Shown piece by piece: positions 3,100 through 54,566 of a stretch of DNA of 64,000 nt. The translations under genes were made by a program, and so were the position numbers. Position 1 is the stretch's first letter. Each line of letters starts with the position of its first letter. Origin of the DNA: a virus (lineage: Duplodnaviria; Caudoviricetes); IMG/VR virus record IMGVR_UViG_3300014205_000003, positions 96,001 to 160,000 of that record; one strand, written 5' to 3'. The notes below the pieces were generated by a model, which saw nothing but the letters and a program-made list of their open reading frames with translations, made no database searches and was not told where the DNA came from.

Positions 3100-4218
3100 A
3101 TGATCGCATCTATTGCAGACTCACACATCGGTAAGTGTATTCGTAAAGGCATCGCAGAACTCGAGAAAGATGGAGCAGAAGCTCTTGGTCGAATGCTGGA
3201 TGCTATTCTAGTTAAAGCTCACGGCGAGCCTGTTCATCTCTTGGTTGCAGGAGACTCTGCAGATACTGTCTCTATCGACGGAGCAGGCATCCAAGGTCTA
3301 GTCAATCAGCTCAATGCTTTCGTAGACAAAGGAAACACTGTCTACTACATCCAAGGCAATCACGACAAGCAACGCTCCTCCATGCACTCTAAGCCAATCC
3401 TGGATAGTGTGCACAACAGTGTATATCTTCACAACAATCGAGTAGTCGTAGAAGGTAAAGTTATCAGAGGCCTTGACTATACGCCTCCTGAGAGTCTGAA
3501 GGAAGCTCTCAAGACCAAAGATGTCTCTTGCGATATTCTTGTCCTCCATGCAGCCTTCGAAGAAATCCTTCCATTTGCCAACGCGTTTGACTTGTCCTTT
3601 GAGGATGTTCCCAGTACTGTAGGAACGGTCATTGCAGGCGACATTCACACAGCTCGTAAATTGCAGTTGGTCGCTGGAGAGAATCGCTTCTTTGTGTCTC
3701 CTGGTGGCGTGCACAGCTGTGCAGTTGACCAGAAAGGTCCCTTTGGCTTCTGGACACTTGTGAAGGATGATTGGATCTTCACAGCTTGTCCTACAAGGGA
3801 GATTGTGGAAAGTGATTTGACTGAGATGGAAACTGTTGAGAGTCTTGGTGCGTTTATTCAACAACTTACCGACACTGCAAGAGCTCTTCCCAATCAAGCA
3901 AACTTGAAGCCTATTCTCAATCTCAAGTGGGACAGGAGTCGCTCTGATCTGTTCGACAAGTGTGTTGAAGTCTTGCAGAGTACTTATGTGATACTTGAGG
4001 AAGCGTATACCAGTAATGGAAAGGCTTTGGATGTCAAGGAGCTTCAGAGAGCTATGACAGACTTCAAAGCTACTACGATGGATGTGGCACTTCCGTTTGT
4101 GTGTGATGCGGCTCAGACGCCTCAAGTGTACAAGTTGCTTGAGCAGTGTTTAACAACTAAAGAGGCTCTTCCAGTTGTGGAGGGATTCATCAACATGGCA
4201 AAGGCAGGAACAATATGA
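3100..4218 (+). CDS. sbcD: SbcD/Mre11-like metallophosphoesterase nuclease
   Basis: Motifs IADSHIG, VAGDSAD, IQGNHD, AGDIH; near an SbcC gene. Confidence 0.85.
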   Translation: MIASIADSHIGKCIRKGIAELEKDGAEALGRMLDAILVKAHGEPVHLLVAGDSADTVSIDGAGIQGLVNQLNAFVDKGNTVYYIQGNHDKQRSSMHSKPILDSVHNSVYLHNNRVVVEGKVIRGLDYTPPESLKEALKTKDVSCDILVLHAAFEEILPFANAFDLSFEDVPSTVGTVIAGDIHTARKLQLVAGENRFFVSPGGVHSCAVDQKGPFGFWTLVKDDWIFTACPTREIVESDLTEMETVESLGAFIQQLTDTARALPNQANLKPILNLKWDRSRSDLFDKCVEVLQSTYVILEEAYTSNGKALDVKELQRAMTDFKATTMDVALPFVCDAAQTPQVYKLLEQCLTTKEALPVVEGFINMAKAGTI

Positions 4219-5157: not shown

Positions 5158-5312
5158 TGAACACACTTATCAAAGACCCTGTAGACATTAAGTGCTTGGA
5201 CATCTCAACAGCTCACATTACAGCTACAGACTCAAAGCTTCTGGAACAAGCCTGTGAAGAGGACAACCCAAGTCTGTCCGTATACGATTATAGTTACCAA
5301 CTAAGGAGCTAG
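5157..5312 (+). pseudogene. 5' fragment of a small protein (LDISTAHIT motif, DUF5983-like), truncated by TnpB cassette 1
   Basis: MNTLIKDPVDIKCLDISTAHITATDSKLLEQACEEDNPSLSVYDY then runs into the element end (AGTTACC) and stops; no 3' half on the other side. Confidence 0.6.
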
Positions 5313-5400
5313 TTGATTTGTCACGGAAGGGGGACTATAAGCTCCCCTCATCAGAATGTTTTTGGCTGCATTGAAGTCGGCATCCATCGTCACTCCACAA
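5290..5400 (-). ncRNA. Putative omegaRNA scaffold overlapping the tnpB 3' end; guide predicted to begin ~AATCGTATACGGACAGAC
   Basis: Hairpins GGGG-AGCTTATAGT-CCCC and CAACTA-GCTCCT-TAGTTG conserved in cassette 2; the 5' limit of the RNA is not determined. Confidence 0.55.
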
Positions 5401-6368
5401 GCAGTACAACAGAATGACTCTCCCTTTCGGGACAGTTTGTCTACCGCTCCGCACAAGCTACATGTCTGTGAAGAGTAAGCAGAGAAGACTTTCGTGTATC
5501 TAATGCCTTTTTCTTCACTGACTAGCTGAAGCCGACTCAAAACTTTTGAGTAGCTCCAGCGTTGCAACTTGTTCATGAATTGCTTGCTAATCTTGCCTTT
5601 AGAACCCTTCTTAACGTCTTTCAAATCTTCTACTACAAGCTCTTGAATATTGCGCAAGTCGAGAAGGTTTACCGATTGGTTGATCTTCTGATCCCGCTCT
5701 GTGAGAGCTTTCTTGAAGGCTTTAGACCCTTGTTTCTTCCTAGCTATTTTCTTGTAGACCTGTTCCATACCTACGTCGTAAATTTGCTTATCAGAAGAAG
5801 CAAGAAGTTTCTTATATCCGCAGTCAAGCCCTATAGAAGCTCCAGTAGCAGGGCTAGGAGATTCTTTCTCGAAAAAGATGTCAAGATACCACTTGCCATT
5901 TACTTTACGCAAGCAAGAAGACTTCTTAAGAGTCCAACCGTTCTGACTGAATTTAAGAAACTGCTTGTGACGTTTTGAAGGAATCTTAAGTACAATGTGG
6001 TTGCCAAGAGAGACCAATTTTATCCAAAAGTCAAAGGTGTTGTGTTCTGTATAGAATGTGCAGATTTTTTGATTTAGGCCAAACGTCTTTTGCGTGATCT
6101 TCGGCTTTGATGCTTTCTTCGTCTTGTTCTTTCTGGCTCTTGTTTTTTGAAGAATGCCAAAAGCTTGAACGAATAAACATCGACGTAAATCACAGCCTAG
6201 CCGAGTTTGAATCTTAGGAAGCTTGTCAAACTGTCTTGCGGAAGGATCGTTCCAAAAGTGATCTACGTAGAGCTGGAGAACCTTCAAAGCTTCGTTACCT
6301 ACAGTGTCGAGCTTCTGGAGCTTTCCAGTATTTGCAAAATTCAAGGACATTTGAACGGAACGAATCAC
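5301..6368 (-). CDS. tnpB: TnpB RNA-guided endonuclease
   Basis: RuvC motifs IGLDCG, VVEDL, DADFNAAKNI and Zn finger CSLCG...CTACG; all three catalytic acids intact. Confidence 0.92.
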   Translation of the reverse strand: MIRSVQMSLNFANTGKLQKLDTVGNEALKVLQLYVDHFWNDPSARQFDKLPKIQTRLGCDLRRCLFVQAFGILQKTRARKNKTKKASKPKITQKTFGLNQKICTFYTEHNTFDFWIKLVSLGNHIVLKIPSKRHKQFLKFSQNGWTLKKSSCLRKVNGKWYLDIFFEKESPSPATGASIGLDCGYKKLLASSDKQIYDVGMEQVYKKIARKKQGSKAFKKALTERDQKINQSVNLLDLRNIQELVVEDLKDVKKGSKGKISKQFMNKLQRWSYSKVLSRLQLVSEEKGIRYTKVFSAYSSQTCSLCGAVDKLSRKGESFCCTACGVTMDADFNAAKNILMRGAYSPPSVTNQLAP

Positions 6369-6532
6369 TTAGGAGCTTCTCCTGTAACGCGCTTAATAGA
6401 CTCGACAGAAATCTTACGTTGGTTTGACGGAGTCAAGTAACCCTTAAGCTTCCCTTCGTCGAACCAGCGACGAATTGAGTCTGGATGAACTCCCATCATC
6501 TTCGCAGCTTTACTAACAGATGTGTATTCCAT
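6365..6532 (-). CDS. 55-aa MerR/excisionase-type HTH protein (like the IS607 TnpA N-terminus, no recombinase domain)
   Basis: MEYTSVSKAAKMMGVHPDSIRRWFDEGKLKGYLTPSNQRKISVESIKRVTGEAPK*; TGA overlaps the tnpB GTG; below the ORF-track cutoff. Confidence 0.85.
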   Translation of the reverse strand: MEYTSVSKAAKMMGVHPDSIRRWFDEGKLKGYLTPSNQRKISVESIKRVTGEAPK

Positions 6533-6582
6533 TGTAACCTAGCCTTTCTATTGAATACTAATATAGCATAAGGAGCAATCAA

Positions 6583-8625
6583 GTGATTCCACTCTATTTC
6601 CGCTTAAGGAACTTCTGTCAGCAGAAGGATACCAAAGTCGACTATCGCTTCGGCATTACAGGTCTCATTGGCAACAATGGACATGGTAAATCAAACCTCA
6701 TCGATGCAGGTCAGTTCTTTGCCTGGACAGGCCAAGTCGTCAAAGACAAGAAAGAAGACTATCTGACTTGGGGACAATCCTCAGGCTCTGCTCAAGTCCA
6801 ATTCCAAGACAACAATCGAACCTACACGCTTACTCGTAATCTTCACAACGCTGGATGTACTCTCAAGTGGACATCTGCTAGTGGAGACACAGGTGAAGAG
6901 AAAGGCATCAAAGTTGTCGACAAGATCCTCGAAGAAGACATCCTTGGAATGCCCTTCGAAGTCTTTCGAGAAGCTAAGTTCTGCGCTCAGACTTCCCTGA
7001 TCGAAATTCTCAACATGACTGCTTCCAAGCGTATGGAGTACTTCCAAAAACTTGCAGGTGTTCAACGTGCTGAACAAATAAGAGGACTTCTGCAGACTAA
7101 GTCCAATGAACTTCCCAACGTTATGGATGTGTCTGCAGACATCAAGTCCATTGAGGACTCTGTAGTAGTGGCAGAAGAGACTGTCAACAACGCTGGTGTA
7201 GCTCTGAAGGCTTGGATGGCTACTTTGCCTTCTGAGGGTGCTGTAGAAGCTTTGGGACGCATCAATCAGACTCTCAAGACTACTCGAACTGTTGATGAAG
7301 TGTCAGCAGATATTGTTAAGTGCATACGTATTGTTCAAGAAAACACTCAGCGCATTAAAGACCTCAATGTAGACACTGCTCTGGTTCCAGTCGATCCTCC
7401 GACGCCGGAAGAGACTCTGGCAGCACAGCATACAGGATTCATCACCGCTAATAACAAGAAGATCGAAGATTTGACTCTTCAAGCTTCTAAGATTGCTGTC
7501 TATCAGATTCTTTCCAAGCCGGATACCAAACAAGTAGAAGACTTCCGAGAACTGTTAGGTAAGCAGCGTCCACTGTATGAAAGTGCTAAGACAGGTAAAT
7601 GTGAAACCTGTAAGCGTCCCTTTGAGTTTCAGGAAGATCCCAAAGAGATTATCAAGCGCTTCGAGGAAGCTGAGAAGGTCTTTGCGCTGGCTTCTGCAGA
7701 ACTCAAGCGTCAGCAGAGTGATTATGAGAAGAACACTCAAGACATTGTAAGAGCTTCTACTTCCAAGTCTGGCCTGACTAGGCAGGTTGCGGAATTGGAA
7801 GCAGATAACACTCGGAGACAAGCTTCCATACCCTCAGGCTTTGCTTTAGCTATCTATGAGCAGAAAGTTGCTAAGTATCAGACTTGGCAGAGTCAACAGG
7901 CTCACTTGAACAGCGTTCAGAAGCAAGTCAAGGAATATGAGAAGGCTATCCTAAGTGCACAGATGTGCGCGGAACAGCTGAAGAAGGAGCCTGAGCTTAC
8001 CAAGGAAGACGTTGAGAAGTTGACTCAGGAGAAGATTCGGATCGAAGATGCCTTGAGTCAGATCTCAAGCATTCAAACAGCTCAAGTGTCTGCTCAAGCT
8101 CTCATTCTGAGCAGTAAGTCGCAGTTGGATAGGTTGAAGAAGCAGCAAGAGCAGTTTGTGTTGTATGGAAAGATTAGAGGATGGCTTGAATCGGCTAGGA
8201 CATATCTGCACAGGGATGTTCTGCCTAAATTCGTGATGAGTCGACTTTTGACAGGTATGAACTCATGCTTGTCGTACTACTTGGCTCGCTTCAACGCTCC
8301 GTACAATGCTCGAGTGGATGAGAACTTTCAGTTCAAGGTTCAGTTCAAGACTGGCCCTGAGGTGTCTGCTTCTCGACTGTCTGGTGGCGAGTCTGTAGCG
8401 CTTGTGGTGGCGTTTCGCTTCGCATTGGCTGAACTGCTAGGGAAATCCTTTCCACTATTGGTAATGGATGAGCCTACAGCTTGGCTAGATCAGGAGAAGA
8501 AGCAGGTGATGGTTGATGTATTGAAAACGGCTAAGGGATTTGCTGAGAAGGGTTCGTATGTGTTCGTAGTTACACATGATCACATTCTGCTTCCGGCAAT
8601 GACACGCACGATAGAGGTTGAATAG
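6583..8625 (+). CDS. sbcC: SbcC/Rad50-like ATPase
   Basis: Walker A GNNGHGKS, coiled coil with CETC zinc hook, LSGGE signature, MDEPT Walker B, VTHD. Confidence 0.92.
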   Translation: MIPLYFRLRNFCQQKDTKVDYRFGITGLIGNNGHGKSNLIDAGQFFAWTGQVVKDKKEDYLTWGQSSGSAQVQFQDNNRTYTLTRNLHNAGCTLKWTSASGDTGEEKGIKVVDKILEEDILGMPFEVFREAKFCAQTSLIEILNMTASKRMEYFQKLAGVQRAEQIRGLLQTKSNELPNVMDVSADIKSIEDSVVVAEETVNNAGVALKAWMATLPSEGAVEALGRINQTLKTTRTVDEVSADIVKCIRIVQENTQRIKDLNVDTALVPVDPPTPEETLAAQHTGFITANNKKIEDLTLQASKIAVYQILSKPDTKQVEDFRELLGKQRPLYESAKTGKCETCKRPFEFQEDPKEIIKRFEEAEKVFALASAELKRQQSDYEKNTQDIVRASTSKSGLTRQVAELEADNTRRQASIPSGFALAIYEQKVAKYQTWQSQQAHLNSVQKQVKEYEKAILSAQMCAEQLKKEPELTKEDVEKLTQEKIRIEDALSQISSIQTAQVSAQALILSSKSQLDRLKKQQEQFVLYGKIRGWLESARTYLHRDVLPKFVMSRLLTGMNSCLSYYLARFNAPYNARVDENFQFKVQFKTGPEVSASRLSGGESVALVVAFRFALAELLGKSFPLLVMDEPTAWLDQEKKQVMVDVLKTAKGFAEKGSYVFVVTHDHILLPAMTRTIEVE

Positions 8626-46328: not shown

Positions 46329-46397
46329 ATGAAAGATGAACGCTGGATTATTGCAGTAAGCAATCCGAAAAACAAGTGGTGGATAGTTACCAACTAG
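46329..46397 (+). pseudogene. 5' fragment of a WW-family gene truncated by TnpB cassette 2
   Basis: MKDERWIIAVSNPKNKWWIV-TN*, broken at the element end. Confidence 0.65.
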
Positions 46398-46405
46398 ATA
46401 GCTAG

Positions 46406-47461
46406 TCAGTTTGTCACGGAAGGGGGACTATAGGCTCCCCTCTGTCGGATGTTGATGGCCGCATTGAAGTCTGCATCCATCTTCATTCCACACGCGGTAC
46501 AACAGAATGACTCTCCCTTTCGGGACAGTTTGTCTACCGCTCCGCACAAGCTACATGTCTGCGAAGTAAAGGCAGGATTAATCCTCGTAAGGGTTAGTCC
46601 TGCTTCTTCACAAACCATCTGAAGTTTGTCCAAAACTTTTGGATAGCTCCAGCGTTGTAACTTGTTGTTAAATTGCTTGCTAATCTCGCCTTTAGAACCC
46701 TTCTTCACATCCTTGAGATCTTCGACTACAAGTTCTTGAATGTTAGTAAGATCAATCAGCTTTACAGACTGATTGATCTTTTGGTCACGTTCCTTCAATG
46801 CTCTTTTAAATGCTTTAGATCCTTGTTTCTTCCTAGCGATTTTCTCATAGACATTTTCCATGCCTACGTCGTAGGTTTTCTGATCGGAAGAAGCAAGGAG
46901 TTTCTTGTATCCACAATCAAGGCCTAAGAATGTTCCCTTCGATGTACTGGGAGTATCTTTCTCGAAGAATACATCCAAGTACCACTTCCCATTGACTTTA
47001 CGTAAGCAAGAGGACTTCTTAAGAAGCCAGCCGTGCTGACTGAACTTGAGAAATTGCTTGTGCTTACATGAAGGGATCTTAAGATTTATCTTGTTTCCTA
47101 GACAAAAGAGTTTAATCCAGAAGTCGAAAGAATTCTGCTTAGTAGAGAAAGTACAGATAAGTTCCGTGAGATTAAAAGTTTTTTGTTTGAGTACAGGCTT
47201 AGATGCTTTCTTTACTTTGTTCTTTCGAGCTCGTAGTTTCTTAAGTACGTCAAAGGCTTGAATGAAAAGACATCTTTGAAGGCGAGCGGCGAGCCACGTT
47301 GGAATTGGAGGAAGTTGATCGAACTTTGTAGCAGAAGGATCTTTCCAGAAGTGCTCTACGTAGAGATTAAGTACTCTCAGGGCTTCCACACTGAAAGTAT
47401 CAAGCTTTTGGAGCTTCCCGGCGTTTGCAAAGTTCAACGACATTTGTACTCTACGAATCAC
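46406..47461 (-). CDS. tnpB: TnpB RNA-guided endonuclease (close paralog of 5301..6368)
   Basis: LGLDCG, VVEDL, DADFNAAINI, Zn finger. Confidence 0.92.
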   Translation of the reverse strand: MIRRVQMSLNFANAGKLQKLDTFSVEALRVLNLYVEHFWKDPSATKFDQLPPIPTWLAARLQRCLFIQAFDVLKKLRARKNKVKKASKPVLKQKTFNLTELICTFSTKQNSFDFWIKLFCLGNKINLKIPSCKHKQFLKFSQHGWLLKKSSCLRKVNGKWYLDVFFEKDTPSTSKGTFLGLDCGYKKLLASSDQKTYDVGMENVYEKIARKKQGSKAFKRALKERDQKINQSVKLIDLTNIQELVVEDLKDVKKGSKGEISKQFNNKLQRWSYPKVLDKLQMVCEEAGLTLTRINPAFTSQTCSLCGAVDKLSRKGESFCCTACGMKMDADFNAAINIRQRGAYSPPSVTN

Positions 47462-47628
47462 TTAGAAGATTCTCCTGCAAGAATGCTTTGGATAGATTCT
47501 ACAGAAATCTTACGTTGCTTAGAAGGTGTCTTATACCCTTTAAGCTTCCCTTCATCAAACCATCTACGTATGGAGTCAGGATGTACTCCCATCATCTTAG
47601 CTGCTTTAGTTAACGAGATATATTCCAT
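47458..47628 (-). CDS. 56-aa MerR/excisionase-type HTH protein
   Basis: MEYISLTKAAKMMGVHPDSIRRWFDEGKLKGYKTPSKQRKISVESIQSILAGESSK*; TGA overlaps the tnpB GTG. Confidence 0.85.
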   Translation of the reverse strand: MEYISLTKAAKMMGVHPDSIRRWFDEGKLKGYKTPSKQRKISVESIQSILAGESSK

Positions 47629-47677
47629 TTTGCTGTTCCTTTCTCATTAATACTAATATAGCATAAGGATTTTTATT

Positions 47678-48202
47678 ATGGGAACTAAATGTGCGATGTG
47701 CTGTGAGTCTGCTCCTTCGGACAAGTGGTGGGTTCTTCTGTCTTTCAAGCCTAAGAAAATGCCTCGTTACCCGTACTTTGATAGCATTCATGGTCCTTAT
47801 CCAACACGTAAGGAAGCACGAGTAGCTGCAAAGAAGATTAGAGAGAACAGCAGTGAGAGTTCAATCAAACTCTCTTACTCTGTTGGAAGAAATCTAGTCA
47901 TATCCTGTGTCTTCTAACCAATGAAAGTACGAGGATTAATGCAGAATTACTATCTGGAACATCCTGACAAACTCCCTTGGTGGGTCATCTGCTATAAGAA
48001 CTATGAAGCCGAGAATAAAGACCTACATGATGGGGACTTTTTCAAGGACGCTCAACTGTATAGACTCCATGGTCCTTACATGTCTCGATCGGCAGCGAGA
48101 TCCTACCTTGAGATTTTGAAAAATAATGACATTTACGATTTTGGTGAGATCGGTCTTCGTTGGAAGATTGTAAAAGATCTCTGCGTATCCTGTAATCCCT
48201 AA
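47678..48202 (+). CDS. Two 'WW...HGPY' family proteins (47678..47917, 47921..48202)
   Basis: KWWVL...HGPYPTRKEAR; PWWVI...HGPYMSRSAAR. Confidence 0.75.
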
Positions 48203-50974: not shown

Positions 50975-51288
50975 CGTCAGCAGGGATCATATTGGCATCG
51001 AAGGGGTTGTGGTGTTTCGCTAAGAGCTTGCTGACGGTCGAGGTGCTCGAAATCTCTCTTAGCGAATTCCTTTCCAGGTGTGCCCCAGTTCTCCCGCACT
51101 CTTAAGAAACGATCCCAGGGAGAACAACTTACTATTTAGTCTTGTCAGAGGGTTGACCATTGGCGCGGAGGTCACGTGCGTGTTGTAGCAGATGTTCCTC
51201 TGACAGTGTGGTACGATTCGCTCTGCTACAGCTCCTAACAGATAGCCAAGACTCCTCCTACCTGTACCGTAACGTGCTTAGAGGAGTC
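50975..51288 (+). ncRNA. Tandem pair of structured, pseudoknotted RNAs (50975..51125 and 51143..51288), unassigned
   Basis: Each unit has two crossing 9-11 bp helices plus a terminal 8-bp hairpin; different sequence but the same topology; G-U pairs favour the + strand. Confidence 0.65.
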
Positions 51289-51322: not shown

Positions 51323-51862
51323 ATGTCCGTTTCAAGTATGCCTGAGTACAAATCTCTCTTTGATCTATCTCAGCAGTCAATCTCCTCAAAGTGCACATCT
51401 GTGCACTCTCTCCCCACAACCTTCAAGAAAGTTCTCTGGGCTCCGCACAGCTGGAACCTTGACTTAGGTGGTGGTCAGTACGAAGATGCTTCTATCTATC
51501 TGCAGAAACGTTTTGTATCCAACTTTGTATATGATCCGTTTAACAGGTCGGATGAACACAACGAACGCATTCGAGCATACATCATAAGTAGTTCGTTTGA
51601 TACAGTAACATGTTGTAATGTTTTGAACGTTATTAAGGAAGCAAAGATTCGACATACAGTCATAGAACAGGCGTACAAAGCATTGAAGCTCGGAGGGGTA
51701 GCCTACTTTCAGATCTATGAGGGAGACCGCTCTCAGAGGCAAGGAAAGACTTCTAAGGGCTATCAGTTGAACTGGTGGACGTCTTCTTATGTATCAGAAA
51801 TCACTAAGGTCTTTCACGGACTATGTAATGAGTACGCTAATACTCTAGTAGTAAGGAAATAA
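51323..51862 (+). CDS. Class I SAM-dependent methyltransferase
   Basis: NLDLGGG, VYDPFNR, DTVTCCNVLNVI, AYFQIYEGD. Confidence 0.8.
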   Translation: MSVSSMPEYKSLFDLSQQSISSKCTSVHSLPTTFKKVLWAPHSWNLDLGGGQYEDASIYLQKRFVSNFVYDPFNRSDEHNERIRAYIISSSFDTVTCCNVLNVIKEAKIRHTVIEQAYKALKLGGVAYFQIYEGDRSQRQGKTSKGYQLNWWTSSYVSEITKVFHGLCNEYANTLVVRK

Positions 51863-51932
51863 CCTAGGTAGGTATTTTATCTTGTTGCTAATCCTATGCT
51901 ATATTAGTATTCAATAGAAAGGCTAGGTTATA

Positions 51933-52100
51933 ATGGAATACACATCCGTTAGTAAGGCCGCTAAGATGATGGGAGTTCATCCAGACTCAATACGCCGGTG
52001 GTTCGACGAAGGGAAACTTAAAGGATACTTGACTCCGTCAAATCAACGTAAGATCTCTGTTGAGTCAATTAAGGTTCTTACAGGAGAATCTCCTAAGTGA
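51933..52100 (+). CDS. 55-aa MerR/excisionase-type HTH protein
   Basis: 52 of 55 residues identical to 6365..6532; TGA overlaps the tnpB GTG. Confidence 0.85.
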   Translation: MEYTSVSKAAKMMGVHPDSIRRWFDEGKLKGYLTPSNQRKISVESIKVLTGESPK

Positions 52101-53410
52101 TAAGAACGACTCGTCACAAACTAACTGATAGTAACGCCCTGAAGCAACAAAGGTTACTTTATGTTTTGACTGAGAGTAAGAACGTTGCACAAACGTACTT
52201 AGACTATTTGTGGACGTATGGTTGTACTTGGCAAACTAAAGATAGTTTGGGCGCTGGTATCCTACACACCCTAGACATATCAAGGAATCTTTTTGAACAT
52301 CCGTCTATGCTGTCAAACGTAGATTTAGAAAACAGCATTCAGGGATTCTCATCGGCCTTATCGGCGCGTCTGAAGAAGTGTATACTTACTCAAGTCTTAG
52401 GGATAGTTGGAGCATCTATAGAGAAGCAGAAGAAGCGTTTGTGGCAGCTTAACAAAAGCATAACAGAAGGAAAGTCTTGCAAGCAACTGCTCAAGAAAAT
52501 CGGACAGAATGCTCCTGTTAAACCAGATCTTTCTAACTTCTCATTAGAACTAAACACACTTTGTGTTGACCTCCGACGTTTACAAAACTCGCCGTTCGAC
52601 TATTTTGTGCAACTTAAATGCTTGGGAAAAGGTATTCCTTCCATTCGTCTTCCCATTAAGTTGCACAGAGCTGATAGGAAGTTTCAATCCTGGAGAATGC
52701 TTACCAGTTTTCTGATTTCAGAGAACGAAATACAGATACGATATGAAAAAGAGACACCGCCAAAGCTTGAACAGGGCTCGGTAGTAGGTGCCGATCAAGG
52801 TTTGAAAACAACCATAACCTTCTCTACAGGCTCTATCACTCCAGCAACAGACCCTCACGGTCATTCCCTAGAAGACGTCACTCATAAATTGTCTAGACGA
52901 CGCAAAGGCTCCAAGGGCTTTAAAAGAGCTCAAGACCATCGAAAGAACTTAATCAACTTTCAGATCAAACAACTGAACTTAACTGGCATCAAACAAATCA
53001 ATCTAGAGAAGGTCTGGAACATTGGTTACAAGACTCGTAAAAGTCGATACTTGTCGCATTGGTGTAATACACTCATCCGAGACAGACTGATCCAAGCTGG
53101 AGAAGAACAAGGGGTCCTTGTGAAACTTCAGCCATCAGTCTACAGAAGTCAGAGATGCAGTGCATGTGGGTTGGTACGAAAAGCCAATCGAAAAGGAAAG
53201 GAGTACAAATGCCTTTGTGGCTTTCATCTAGATGCAGATCTGAATGCTAGTCTCAATCATGTAGTTGAACTCCCTGAGATTTCGTTTGACTTTCGTAAGT
53301 TGAATCTAAACAGAAAGGGTTTCTATTGGAAACCTGAAGGTCTGTTTGATTTAACTGGTAGGGAGTTTGCAGTCCCCTATTCCTCACAAGAAACTGACTC
53401 TAAGTTGTAA
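52097..53410 (+). CDS. tnpB: TnpB-family RNA-guided endonuclease (divergent)
   Basis: VVGADQG, INLEKV, SQRCSACG...CLCG, DADLNASLN. Confidence 0.88.
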   Translation: MIRTTRHKLTDSNALKQQRLLYVLTESKNVAQTYLDYLWTYGCTWQTKDSLGAGILHTLDISRNLFEHPSMLSNVDLENSIQGFSSALSARLKKCILTQVLGIVGASIEKQKKRLWQLNKSITEGKSCKQLLKKIGQNAPVKPDLSNFSLELNTLCVDLRRLQNSPFDYFVQLKCLGKGIPSIRLPIKLHRADRKFQSWRMLTSFLISENEIQIRYEKETPPKLEQGSVVGADQGLKTTITFSTGSITPATDPHGHSLEDVTHKLSRRRKGSKGFKRAQDHRKNLINFQIKQLNLTGIKQINLEKVWNIGYKTRKSRYLSHWCNTLIRDRLIQAGEEQGVLVKLQPSVYRSQRCSACGLVRKANRKGKEYKCLCGFHLDADLNASLNHVVELPEISFDFRKLNLNRKGFYWKPEGLFDLTGREFAVPYSSQETDSKL

Positions 53411-53430
53411 ATGCTTAGATTTCAGTAACT

Positions 53431-53709
53431 GTCAAAGCAGGAACTGATACTGTCACATGCTGCAACGTATTGAATGTGATAAAAGAGCCTGACGTGCGTC
53501 GAAAGGTCATAGAACAGGCCTACAAGGCTTTGAAGATGCGTGGGGTAGCGTACTTCCAGATCTACGAGGGAGACGTCTCCAGCAGGCCCTGCAAGACCAC
53601 CAAAGGTTTCCAGATGAACTGCAGAGCTAGTAGCTACATTCGCGAGTTCCATGACGTGTTTCATGGCTGTGTTAATCAATACTCAAATATTCTAGTAATG
53701 AGGAAATAA
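53431..53709 (+). pseudogene. Orphan 3' half of a diverged allele of the 51323..51862 methyltransferase
   Basis: VKAGTDTVTCCNVLNVIKE...IEQAYKALK...VAYFQIYEGD...NILVMRK* aligns with the C-terminal half of the intact gene; begins at the element right end. Confidence 0.88.
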
Positions 53710-53711
53710 GT

Positions 53712-54566
53712 ATGACAGTTGCAAAGATTTACCCAAACAACGATTCTGCTTGTCCTGTCTGTAAAGGTCCGACAGTCCTTACAGAACTTACATGTCGGCA
53801 CAAGAAAGCGCTCACATTTGTTCTAAGCTGTAAGAATCACAAGTATTGCTACGAGTGTTCTAGCTCGAGTGTCTCTACACTTGCTAGTGCGCTCTCAGCG
53901 ACATACAGCGCTATGAATACACCTCCTCGTATGCAGACTGGATTTCCTACGTGCCCTCGCTGTGGTAAACAGTTTATTGAGGTTACGCATGACAGCAACA
54001 ACTACGACTTCAAGTGTCCAGAGTGCAACTTGTGGAAGATGGCTCCTACATATGCAGAACTCGAACTGCAGTTGGAAGAGATAGACGCCGATTGTAAGGA
54101 TTACGACAAGTCTATGGGACGGGCTAACAACATACGAGTCCAGAACGTGGTGAAAGAGAACGAGGAGCGATTCAACAACATGCCAACGAATTCTACAGAA
54201 CTCTCCGACGAGGAGAAAGAGAAGCTCCTTAAGGAAATGAAAGAGACAGGTAAGGGAATCAAATTCGATCAGGAAAAGCTTAAGTACTCCCTCCTACCTT
54301 GGGATGCTGTTAAAGAGGTTGTGAAAGTACTGATGATTGGTGCACGCAAGTACTCAGCTTCAAATTGGGTAGTGGTTCCCGGAGCCTCTGGAGGCACTGG
54401 TCGATACGCTAACGCGGCTATGCGACACCTTGTTTCCTATATGTCAGGAGAGAAGAATGACCCAGAGACAAAACTGTCACATTTAGCGCATTGTGCGTGC
54501 TGCATTCTTTTTCTGCTTGCTTATGATCTTAGAGGCATTGTATCTAAACCAGAGGAATCCAAGTAA
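53712..54566 (+). CDS. Zn-ribbon + DUF5664-like dATP/dGTP diphosphohydrolase domain protein
   Basis: KFDQEK..YSLLP...GARKY...NW...AAMRHL...DPETKLSHLAH. Confidence 0.75.
   Translation: MTVAKIYPNNDSACPVCKGPTVLTELTCRHKKALTFVLSCKNHKYCYECSSSSVSTLASALSATYSAMNTPPRMQTGFPTCPRCGKQFIEVTHDSNNYDFKCPECNLWKMAPTYAELELQLEEIDADCKDYDKSMGRANNIRVQNVVKENEERFNNMPTNSTELSDEEKEKLLKEMKETGKGIKFDQEKLKYSLLPWDAVKEVVKVLMIGARKYSASNWVVVPGASGGTGRYANAAMRHLVSYMSGEKNDPETKLSHLAHCACCILFLLAYDLRGIVSKPEESK

Follow-up and report, generated by a model that had tools for sequence, protein, structure and literature searches.

Organization of the Locus

The window, the whole 64,000-nucleotide stretch of DNA that was analysed, is part of a complete 188-kb phage genome. 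All features of the locus are on the + strand. Gene A (51323-51862) is an intact open reading frame coding for a 179-amino acid SAM-methyltransferase-like protein, and has no match to the guide described below. A gap of about 15-30 bp separates it from the cassette, which begins with a left module (51877-51932) defined by alignments with other cassettes and composed of a promoter-like sequence, TGCTATATT, of the extended -10 type and a ribosome-binding site; a consensus promoter scan did not call TGCTATATT. The following gene (51933-52100) codes for a 55-amino acid helix-turn-helix (HTH) protein that corresponds to a stand-alone N-terminal DNA-binding domain of an IS607 transposase. The HTH stop codon and the start codon of tnpB (52097-53410, 437 amino acids) overlap, an arrangement kept in five cassettes. 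The right end of the element and the 3′ portion of the predicted omega-RNA scaffold lie within positions 53359-53432, a region that includes a conserved hairpin (53359-53379) with stem covariation, a second hairpin (53399-53419), and the terminal motif GTAACTGT (53425-53432), which is conserved in the family. The first 20 nucleotides past the right end, CAAAGCAGGAACTGATACTG (53433-53452), are the predicted guide and target. They are also the first nucleotides of B3′ (53433-53709), an orphan fragment whose homology to gene A shows that it comprises the 3′ codons (~88-179) of a second, diverged methyltransferase gene, B. A gene with a dATP/dGTP diphosphohydrolase-like domain (53712-54566) begins 2 nucleotides past the B3′ stop codon. 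The initial annotation had described this succession of gene A, HTH, TnpB, and B3′, and every part of it was found in place. A TnpB cassette with an intact methyltransferase copy on one side and a broken copy on the other is a real and unusual arrangement.

The TnpB protein matches the Pfam family Cas12f1-like_TNB (1e-11). A comparison of 27 family members showed that the residues of the RuvC D-E-D triad (D233, E304, and D379/D381) and the zinc-binding cysteines (C354, C357, C372, and C374) are invariant, and the TnpB residues align with the catalytic motifs in solved structures of Cas12f/TnpB. With the triad and the cysteines conserved and the reading frame open, the enzyme is predicted to be catalytically intact, as had been proposed. 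Its closest relative, with 60% identity, is encoded directly downstream of a 189-amino acid open reading frame of the Resolvase family.

Origin of the Cassette

About half of the 78 phage loci of the family have an open reading frame of 185-200 amino acids directly upstream of tnpB. All four that were scanned are serine recombinases (Resolvase), one of them a full IS607 TnpA; the one at locus L021 matched the IS607 transposase model of NCBIfam with 180 bits. Two other loci, L015 and L018, have a ribbon-helix-helix gene at the place of the HTH gene. The HTH protein described here matches positions 2-46 of the 187 of the NCBIfam IS607 transposase model (E 1.8e-6), as well as Pfam HTH_17/MerR and a PHROG annotated as transposase, and it has four paralogues upstream of other tnpB genes of the same genome. 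The genome carries eight TnpB genes, four of which code for proteins that are only 73-79% identical. The lack of TnpA noticed at first in the window was borne out across the complete 188-kb genome, where no transposase (serine or Y1) and no Resolvase domain was found. A similar situation was found in another phage contig (289 kb), which includes five TnpB genes and no Resolvase. Judged by its sequence, the cassette is a degenerate IS607-family element that retains a putative promoter, the N-terminal HTH of TnpA, an intact TnpB, and a predicted omega-RNA, and has lost both the catalytic domain of the transposase and a left terminus of the canonical type.

The left module is common to this and three other cassettes. 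The promoter-HTH module is 90% identical at the nucleotide level to that of a cassette at window positions 6364-6570(-), while the TnpB proteins of these two cassettes share only 27% amino acid identity. The likeness among cassettes stops before gene A. In native relatives, the left terminus (ACAGTT...) repeats the right-end motif in reverse complement, and no terminus of this type was found in the cassettes of this genome; a GTAT located at 51872-51875 could be due to chance. Replacement of the left side has also occurred elsewhere in the family: loci L030 and L032 share the right flank, their likeness begins exactly at the tnpB start codon, and one has TnpA where the other has unrelated DNA. 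These comparisons indicate that the left side of the cassette is recombinant.

Right End, Guide, and Predicted Target

Since related elements terminate in AACTGT or AACTCT, the right end was placed at 53432, with the guide starting at 53433. The family comparison therefore backs the initial annotation, which had located this end at about 53431. Family copies found in different contexts diverge directly past GTAACTGT, and the right junction is a canonical insertion junction inside methyltransferase copy B, at about codon 88. The omega-RNA comparison covered the 3′ part of the scaffold, where the stem of the 53359-53379 hairpin shows compensatory changes in 19 family members (columns 132-135/147-150). 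Searches of Rfam at the gathering or relaxed thresholds gave no match to an omega-RNA family.

The target-adjacent motif (TAM) was deduced from only seven flanks. In native pairs, the left flank ends in GTGT, GTCT, or GTAT where the right end reads CTGT, CTCT, or CTAT. This relation between a GTNT flank and a CTNT right end parallels that of the C. botulinum IS607 element, in which the TAM is TGGG and the scaffold ends in UCGG (PMC10690162). The predicted target is then GTGT followed by CAAAGCAGG... The guide 20-mer occurs once in the genome, and the sole other site with five or fewer mismatches has five of them and no motif. Gene A matches the guide at 8 of 20 positions, differs from it at 11 of the 12 TAM-proximal ones, and reads GTAG at the place of the predicted GTGT. 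These features agree with the earlier remark that the guide does not match the intact gene. The element's own right end is CTGT rather than GTGT. With a unique guide, 12 of 20 positions mismatched in gene A, and CTGT at the right end, the carrier genome is predicted to be resistant in silico.

The Two Methyltransferase Copies

Gene A matches Pfam Methyltransf_23/12 weakly, under the cut-off. A search of a set of 5.8 billion proteins identified 120 homologues, all with 51% identity or less, some of them named SAM-dependent methyltransferase. The open frame that includes B3′ (53419-53709) aligns to residues 88-179 of A with 64% amino acid identity (E 2e-43) and abuts the right end of the element, in accordance with the proposal that it is the 3′ half of a diverged allele. 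A and B are mutually the nearest known relatives, with 64% identity versus 53% or less to all others. The B coding sequence reaches the right junction, and the B3′ residues KAGTDTVTCC agree with the family consensus GGADTATC up to that point. No remnant of the 5′ half of B was found in the whole genome. At the nucleotide level B3′ and A share 64.5% identity, with 28, 17, and 54 differences at the first, second, and third codon positions. Purifying selection on B, together with the lack of stop codons or frameshifts in B3′, indicates that the truncation was recent. The last codons of B3′ carry the ribosome-binding site of the next gene, AGGAAA, 2 nucleotides ahead of its start codon.

The G+C content at third codon positions (GC3) is 0.41 in the 3′ half of A, 0.41 in the cassette, and 0.49 in the 5′ half of A, a difference that is within noise. 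The tandem RNA elements upstream of gene A have no detectable common sequence and consequently give no information on when a duplication may have taken place. The methyltransferase homologues are single-copy in all eight genomic contexts that were read, which argues weakly against an old tandem pair.

Similar Arrangements and Search for Relatives

A comparable layout was found at L071, a locus in an unrelated phage contig, where an orphan fragment starts at the right end itself and the left side carries an intact diverged copy, 83% identical at the nucleotide level. The cassette at window positions 46406-47670 is a weaker form, in which an 18-codon orphan start adjoins the right end and the intact neighbour matches just the first 11 guide bases, without the motif. 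When the 2-kb left flanks of all eight cassettes of the genome were compared with the first 300 nucleotides of their right flanks, homology was detected only at the locus described here and at 46406-47670. Among the 78 family loci, the truncated-copy layout was present at one (L071), and loci L065 and L088 have diverged homologues on both flanks, which is about the chance expectation from tandem paralogues. Repeated accidents are a less parsimonious explanation than one mechanism generating the layout, and this counts against an origin by ordinary rearrangement.

Neither an element-free nor an element-bearing relative of the locus was found in IMG/VR, the JGI metagenomes, or the 5.8-billion-protein set. 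A related locus was not revealed by a blastn comparison with 50,697 phage records, by scanning IMG/VR for the methyltransferase, for the reductase next to it, and for gene Y of L071, by protein searches with A and with the downstream gene, or by the genomic surroundings of the two best homologues of the methyltransferase. The best match in the JGI metagenome scan with the neighbouring reductase had 51% amino acid identity and was not syntenic. A 186-kb contig that includes locus L113 was considered as a possible relative and rejected on inspection. A guide-sensitive B-type allele was not found in the collections searched.

Interpretation

The explanation that we favour, at roughly even chances, is that a degenerate IS607 cassette had its left side rebuilt by recombination and may spread by transposase-independent homing. 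The arrangement could have originated by unequal crossing-over between two copies of the cassette present in different lineages, one just downstream of A and the other inside B. Alternatively, an insertion in the second member of a tandem pair could have been followed by a deletion on the left side. TnpB and the flank-derived guide would then cut uninterrupted B-type alleles of co-infecting relatives, and the recombination system of the phage would copy the cassette into the cut genome, a process that would amount to 'non-restorative homing', as it is called in a review (PMC13565253). Gene A would keep the methyltransferase function in the carrier genome and would escape cutting because it has neither a match to the guide nor the predicted motif. 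Its 'rescue' role would be an outcome of rearrangement and selection, and gene A need not be cargo. The repair proteins that the initial annotation had assigned to this step, RecA, SbcCD, and UvsW, were partly recovered: genes for SbcC/Rad50-like, Mre11-like, and DEAD-helicase proteins were found, and a search with PF00154 gave no RecA. As far as sequences can tell, a drive is a plausible mechanism.

A rather unlikely alternative, although the strongest competitor, is a drive with a linked immune allele. In it, the mobile unit would be gene A, or its 3′ half, plus the cassette; a sensitive B-type allele would be cut, and repair would bring in, along with the cassette, a diverged and guide-resistant version of the gene segment that it displaces, as in a natural cleave-and-rescue element. 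The in silico immunity of A (12/20 mismatches and GTAG for GTGT), the orphan at the right end with an intact copy to the left both here and at L071, and the orphan start at 46406-47670 with its partly mismatched and motif-free neighbour are consistent with such a drive, as are the close relationship of A and B (64% versus ≤53%) and the Rad50/Mre11-type recombination genes of the phage. The GC3 of the 3′ half of A is closer to that of the cassette than to that of the 5′ half, within noise, but neither this value nor the nearest-neighbour ranking of the two halves is informative on chimerism. Against the linked immune allele, movement of the unit was seen in no second genome, the likeness among cassettes stops before A, and there is no known way in which an entire diverged gene would come to be attached to the left end in the first place. 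Moreover, the truncated-copy layout occurs at just one of the 78 family loci, with L065 and L088 at about chance. Since the left part of the cassette is recombinant, an ordinary origin is at least as likely as a drive with rescue. The interpretation first given to this DNA, homing with recoded rescue, is in our opinion possible but unproven: its anatomy, its guide, the missing TnpA, and the in silico immunity stand, and the notion that A moves along with the cassette as its recoded rescue is not supported.

It is less probable still that the cassettes are weapons, kept for cleaving the genomes of competitors or for another phage function, with no copying into the target and with flanking gene copies that are incidental. 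Eight diverged TnpB genes remain intact in one transposase-less genome, and the limited identity among four of them (73-79%) suggests that they are old and maintained; furthermore, an intron endonuclease that serves inter-phage competition is known, as cited in the same review (PMC13565253). Nevertheless, a guide drawn from whatever adjoins the right end is a signature of homing logic, and the divergence between A and B would block gene conversion only across the methyltransferase gene, leaving other flanks able to recombine. That the locus is an inert relic, a decaying insertion with B3′ a pseudogene kept only for the ribosome-binding site of the next gene, is very unlikely: the lost transposase and left terminus, the lack of an Rfam omega-RNA match, and the AGGAAA at the end of B3′ would fit, but tnpB is open over 437 codons with complete catalytic and zinc-binding residues, the hairpins of the scaffold are preserved, as is the terminal motif, and the overlap of HTH and tnpB is conserved in five cassettes.

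If the intact gene A forms part of the mobile unit, the locus would show how a selfish nuclease could invade a useful gene without cost to the carrier. The locus yields concrete predictions, namely the motif GTGT, a 20-nucleotide guide, and an allele expected to be resistant.

Comparison with Known Systems

TnpB maintains its transposon at a site by cleaving the empty form of that site. IS607 elements such as the C. botulinum IStron have a TnpB of the same family as the one described here, whose relatives carry the IS607 transposase; in both cases the guide comes from the right flank, the right end equals the target motif except for one position, and cutting of the empty site triggers recombinational copying, which is proposed in our case (PMC10690162). 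Unlike those elements, the cassette has no recombinase domain anywhere in its genome, keeps only the HTH, as a gene of its own, lacks the left terminus, and has a large phage of the lytic type as host replicon. The motif is GTNT-like instead of the G-rich TGGG of the IStron, and there is no group I intron. A small DNA-binding protein, Arc, was described in IS605 TnpB elements (preprint 10.64898/2026.09.24.754181), where, as here, a small DNA-binding gene is located upstream of tnpB and there is no active transposase. Unlike Arc, the protein found here is a MerR-type HTH derived from the transposase itself, a candidate repressor or end-binding protein.

The T-even endonucleases SegF, SegG, and MobE, responsible for intronless homing and localized marker exclusion, are also encoded between phage genes, with many diverged copies per genome. 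Their carriers owe their resistance to a neighbouring gene that differs in sequence, as is the case here in silico, and spread is expected through double-strand-break repair in co-infection. The differences are that recognition at this locus would depend on a guide RNA and a short motif rather than on the protein, that the target is set automatically by the flank, and that part of the target gene remains as a truncated copy. The eight TnpB genes without a transposase in this genome, and the five in the other phage, suggest RNA-guided counterparts of the Seg/Mob homing endonucleases. We regard it as a tentative and rather doubtful generalization that the transposase-less IS607-derived TnpB cassettes of large phages are RNA-guided free-standing homing endonucleases, some of them linked to a diverged copy, resistant in guide match and motif, of the gene segment that they interrupt. 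These would act as natural cleave-and-rescue drives, passing from phage to phage in co-infection and leaving the target gene functional.

Synthetic cleave-and-rescue drives (ClvR, or toxin-antidote) combine a guided nuclease with a closely linked version of its target gene that has been recoded so that it is not cleaved; they are engineered and aimed at an essential gene. Should the intact copy belong to the mobile unit, the locus would be the natural equivalent of such a drive, but the linkage of A to the cassette may be accidental. To our knowledge, there is no demonstrated case of TnpA-independent TnpB spread in phages or for IS607 derivatives. Intense recombination during co-infection makes phages an obvious natural arena for transposase-free spread. 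Homing driven by TnpB without the transposase is recognised as a mechanism (PMC11870625; reviewed in PMC13565253). In plasmid populations, the TnpB of IS605 without TnpA biases inheritance by cutting element-free copies, into which the element is then copied (PMC11870625). That case concerns IS605 on plasmids, where the element interrupts nothing that is rescued, whereas the cassette described here is an IS607 derivative carried by a phage.

Organization of the locus

The virus record of which the window represents bases 96001–160000 is complete (188,069 bp, with direct terminal repeats). Gene A (51323–51862), which is intact and codes for 179 amino acids with weak but consistent SAM-methyltransferase signatures, is followed by a gene for a 55-amino-acid HTH protein (51933–52100), the stop codon of which overlaps the GTG start of tnpB (52097–53410, 437 amino acids). 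The cassette is followed by B3′, the orphan 3′ part of a diverged copy (B) of the methyltransferase gene; the product of its open frame (53419–53709) is 64% identical to residues 88–179 of A (E 2e-43). Since the four components were located at these coordinates, the initial annotation, which had described an intact methyltransferase gene, an HTH gene, tnpB, and a diverged 3′ half, was correct, with every part found in place. The start of the next gene lies 2 nt past the stop of the B3′ frame, and the AGGAAA preceding that start is within the last codons of B3′. On the left, the stretch between the reductase gene and A (50975–51288) contains neither a convincing ORF nor an internal sequence repeat.

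The 120 homologues of A, found in phage-like contigs, all share 51% identity or less with it. Among known sequences, A is closest to B and B to A; outside this pair, the top match to either one reaches 59% identity across the shared part and 51% overall. The 3′ half of A and B3′ share 64.5% nucleotide identity, with 28, 17, and 54 differences at codon positions 1, 2, and 3, respectively, and the 93 codons of B3′ are free of stops and frameshifts. The codon-position bias and the uninterrupted frame indicate that B worked as a gene for nearly all the time since the A/B split and that its truncation was recent. No trace of its 5′ half was found anywhere in the genome. The B3′ residues KAGTDTVTCC align with the family consensus GGADTATC as far as the right end, indicating that the right junction is a clean insertion junction within a methyltransferase gene.

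The nuclease and its predicted guide and target motif

TnpB residues D233, E304, and D379/D381 and four cysteines are invariant across 27 aligned family members, and a profile built from this alignment matches solved Cas12f and TnpB structures over the RuvC-II/III and zinc-ribbon region. A hairpin (53359–53379) within the final 75 nt of the element has a stem that shows compensatory substitutions in 19 relatives, with one pair seen as GC, UA, CG, AU, and GU. A second, variable hairpin (53399–53419) is followed by the terminal motif GTAACTGT; no match to any Rfam family was obtained. The right-end motifs of relatives are AACTGT, AACTCT, or GACTAT, and copies of the same element at different sites diverge directly past the terminal motif, which places the element end at 53432 and the guide start at 53433. 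The guide initially predicted (CAAAGCAGGAACTGATACTG, from 53433) agrees with this right end, and the 20-mer occurs only once in the genome.

Three pairs of native elements have left flanks ending in GTGT, GTCT, or GTAT/GTAC, with CTGT, CTCT, and CTAT as the matching right ends. The third base covaries between left flank and right end, as expected if the recombinase requires matching core nucleotides, and the fourth-from-last position carries G in the left flank and C within the element, a difference that mirrors that of the C. botulinum IS607 element, in which a TGGG TAM and a UCGG scaffold end prevent self-cleavage (PMC10690162). From the native pairs, seven flanks only, and this parallel, the target motif of the cassette is predicted to be GTGT, located 5′ of the target. 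A has GTAG at the motif position and, when aligned, mismatches the guide at 12 of 20 positions, 11 of them among the first 12, in accordance with the earlier observation that the guide does not match the resident intact gene.

Derivation from IS607 elements

The nearest TnpB (60% identity) is encoded in a T4-like contig directly behind a 189-amino-acid Resolvase-family ORF. An ORF of 185–200 amino acids overlaps the tnpB start in about half of the 78 IMG/VR loci of the family; a Resolvase domain was present in all four that were scanned, one of which matched the IS607 transposase at full score. The 55-amino-acid HTH protein matches positions 2–46 of the IS607 transposase model and is thus the DNA-binding domain of the transposase surviving as its own gene. 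HTH genes of this type accompany five of the eight TnpB genes in the complete phage genome. The absence of TnpA initially noted for the window holds for the complete genome, in which neither a serine nor a Y1 transposase was found. A clean case of multi-copy TnpB without transposase in a jumbo phage is a 289,811-bp IMG/VR phage contig with five TnpB genes and no Resolvase gene; its TnpB-only elements L019, L020, L022, and L025 (about 1.5 kb) are 84–90% identical and located in different contexts. At two other loci (L015:2355-2504 and L018:2274-2495), a small ribbon-helix-helix (NikA-like) gene replaces TnpA or HTH upstream of tnpB. The eighth TnpB of the phage (59453–60592, plus strand) is distant, of the IS605 OrfB type with an N-terminal HTH_OrfB domain, and lacks the upstream HTH gene.

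Similarity among cassettes starts about 40–55 nt upstream of the HTH start codon, stopping short of A, and the shared stretch consists of the TGCTATATT promoter-like box and a ribosome-binding site. This module and the HTH gene are 90% identical to those of another cassette (6364–6570), with similarity ending at the HTH/tnpB junction; the two TnpBs share only 27% identity. The left terminus of native relatives is the reverse complement of their own right-end motif, and the local cassettes have no such terminus. Two related phage contigs (L030 and L032) have tnpB, the right end, and the right flank in common and are unrelated from the tnpB start codon leftward, with a full IS607 TnpA in one and unrelated genes in the other. 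Taken together, the module swap, the missing terminus, and this pair indicate that these elements repeatedly have their left part replaced. The HTH-tnpB cassette at 5301–6575 (minus strand) is located between an Mre11-like gene (3100–4218) and a Rad50/SbcC-like gene (6583–8625) and thereby splits the recombination-nuclease operon of the phage.

Origin of the layout

If two lineages each carried a cassette copy, one just downstream of A and the other inside B, a crossover inside these copies or at their edge could have generated exactly the order A, hybrid cassette, B3′, and selection would keep this product because a genome whose gene was broken thereby regains an intact one. The same product could result if two gene copies lay in tandem, the element inserted into the second, and DNA adjacent on the left was then deleted; the homologues are single-copy in all eight contexts read, which argues weakly against old tandem copies. 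The initial proposal, that A or its 3′ half was cargo copied along with the cassette in a gene drive with rescue, predicts the same present-day sequence as the other two routes. Tests for chimerism of A gave results within noise, and the phage has no sampled relatives. The probability of an ordinary origin by recombination is no lower than that of a drive with rescue. Outside the window, at genome positions 77529–80804, residues 1–172 of a 914-amino-acid ORF recur at 64.5% identity in an adjoining ORF of 173 amino acids, a partial diverged tandem copy without TnpB between the two ORFs.

Left and right flanks were compared for all eight local cassettes and the 78 family loci. In this genome, flank homology was found only at the A/B3′ cassette and at a second HTH-tnpB cassette (46406–47670; 46329–47700, minus strand), located inside an array of four small paralogues with a common WW...HGPY.TR motif. 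Its right end adjoins an 18-codon orphan gene start (MKDERW...KWW); read in the frame of this orphan, the final 6 nt of the right end encode I-V, which the paralogues also have. Immediately past the left end, an intact gene matches the guide at the first 11 bases only and lacks the motif. At L071, an unrelated contig, the right end adjoins a gene fragment of 34 codons with 45 nt of its upstream DNA, and an intact copy, 83% identical over the same stretch, lies on the left. At L065 and L088, the two flanks carry diverged homologues of a single gene, which are apparently tandem paralogues. Three near-element matches in 78 loci are about the chance yield from tandem paralogues; despite this count, it is noteworthy that two or three independent loci show the precise pattern of a right-end fragment paired with an intact left-hand copy.

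Probable function and comparison with known systems

In IS605 and IS607 elements, TnpB cuts the element-free site using a flank-derived guide and repair proceeds from the element-bearing copy (PMC10690162). Such cutting and copying works without transposase in plasmid populations (PMC11870625), and homing by TnpB without transposase was proposed for co-infecting phages (PMC13565253). The phage carries Rad50-like and Mre11-like genes and a DEAD-box helicase gene; for the RecA named initially, no Pfam match was detected in the phage. On the strength of these precedents and recombination genes, the cassette is most likely an RNA-guided homing nuclease directed against B-type alleles of relatives: TnpB would cut them using the flank-derived guide, the element-bearing copy would template repair, and A would be immune. 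For this reading we infer the activity, the motif, the sensitive alleles, and the co-transfer of A. A gene drive with rescue is an attractive and plausible mechanism, though less probable than not. The anatomy is real, and the locus represents an unusual form of a known system. Four of the local TnpB copies share only 73–79% protein identity and are thus old and maintained, much like the Seg/Mob genes of T4, which are likewise many.
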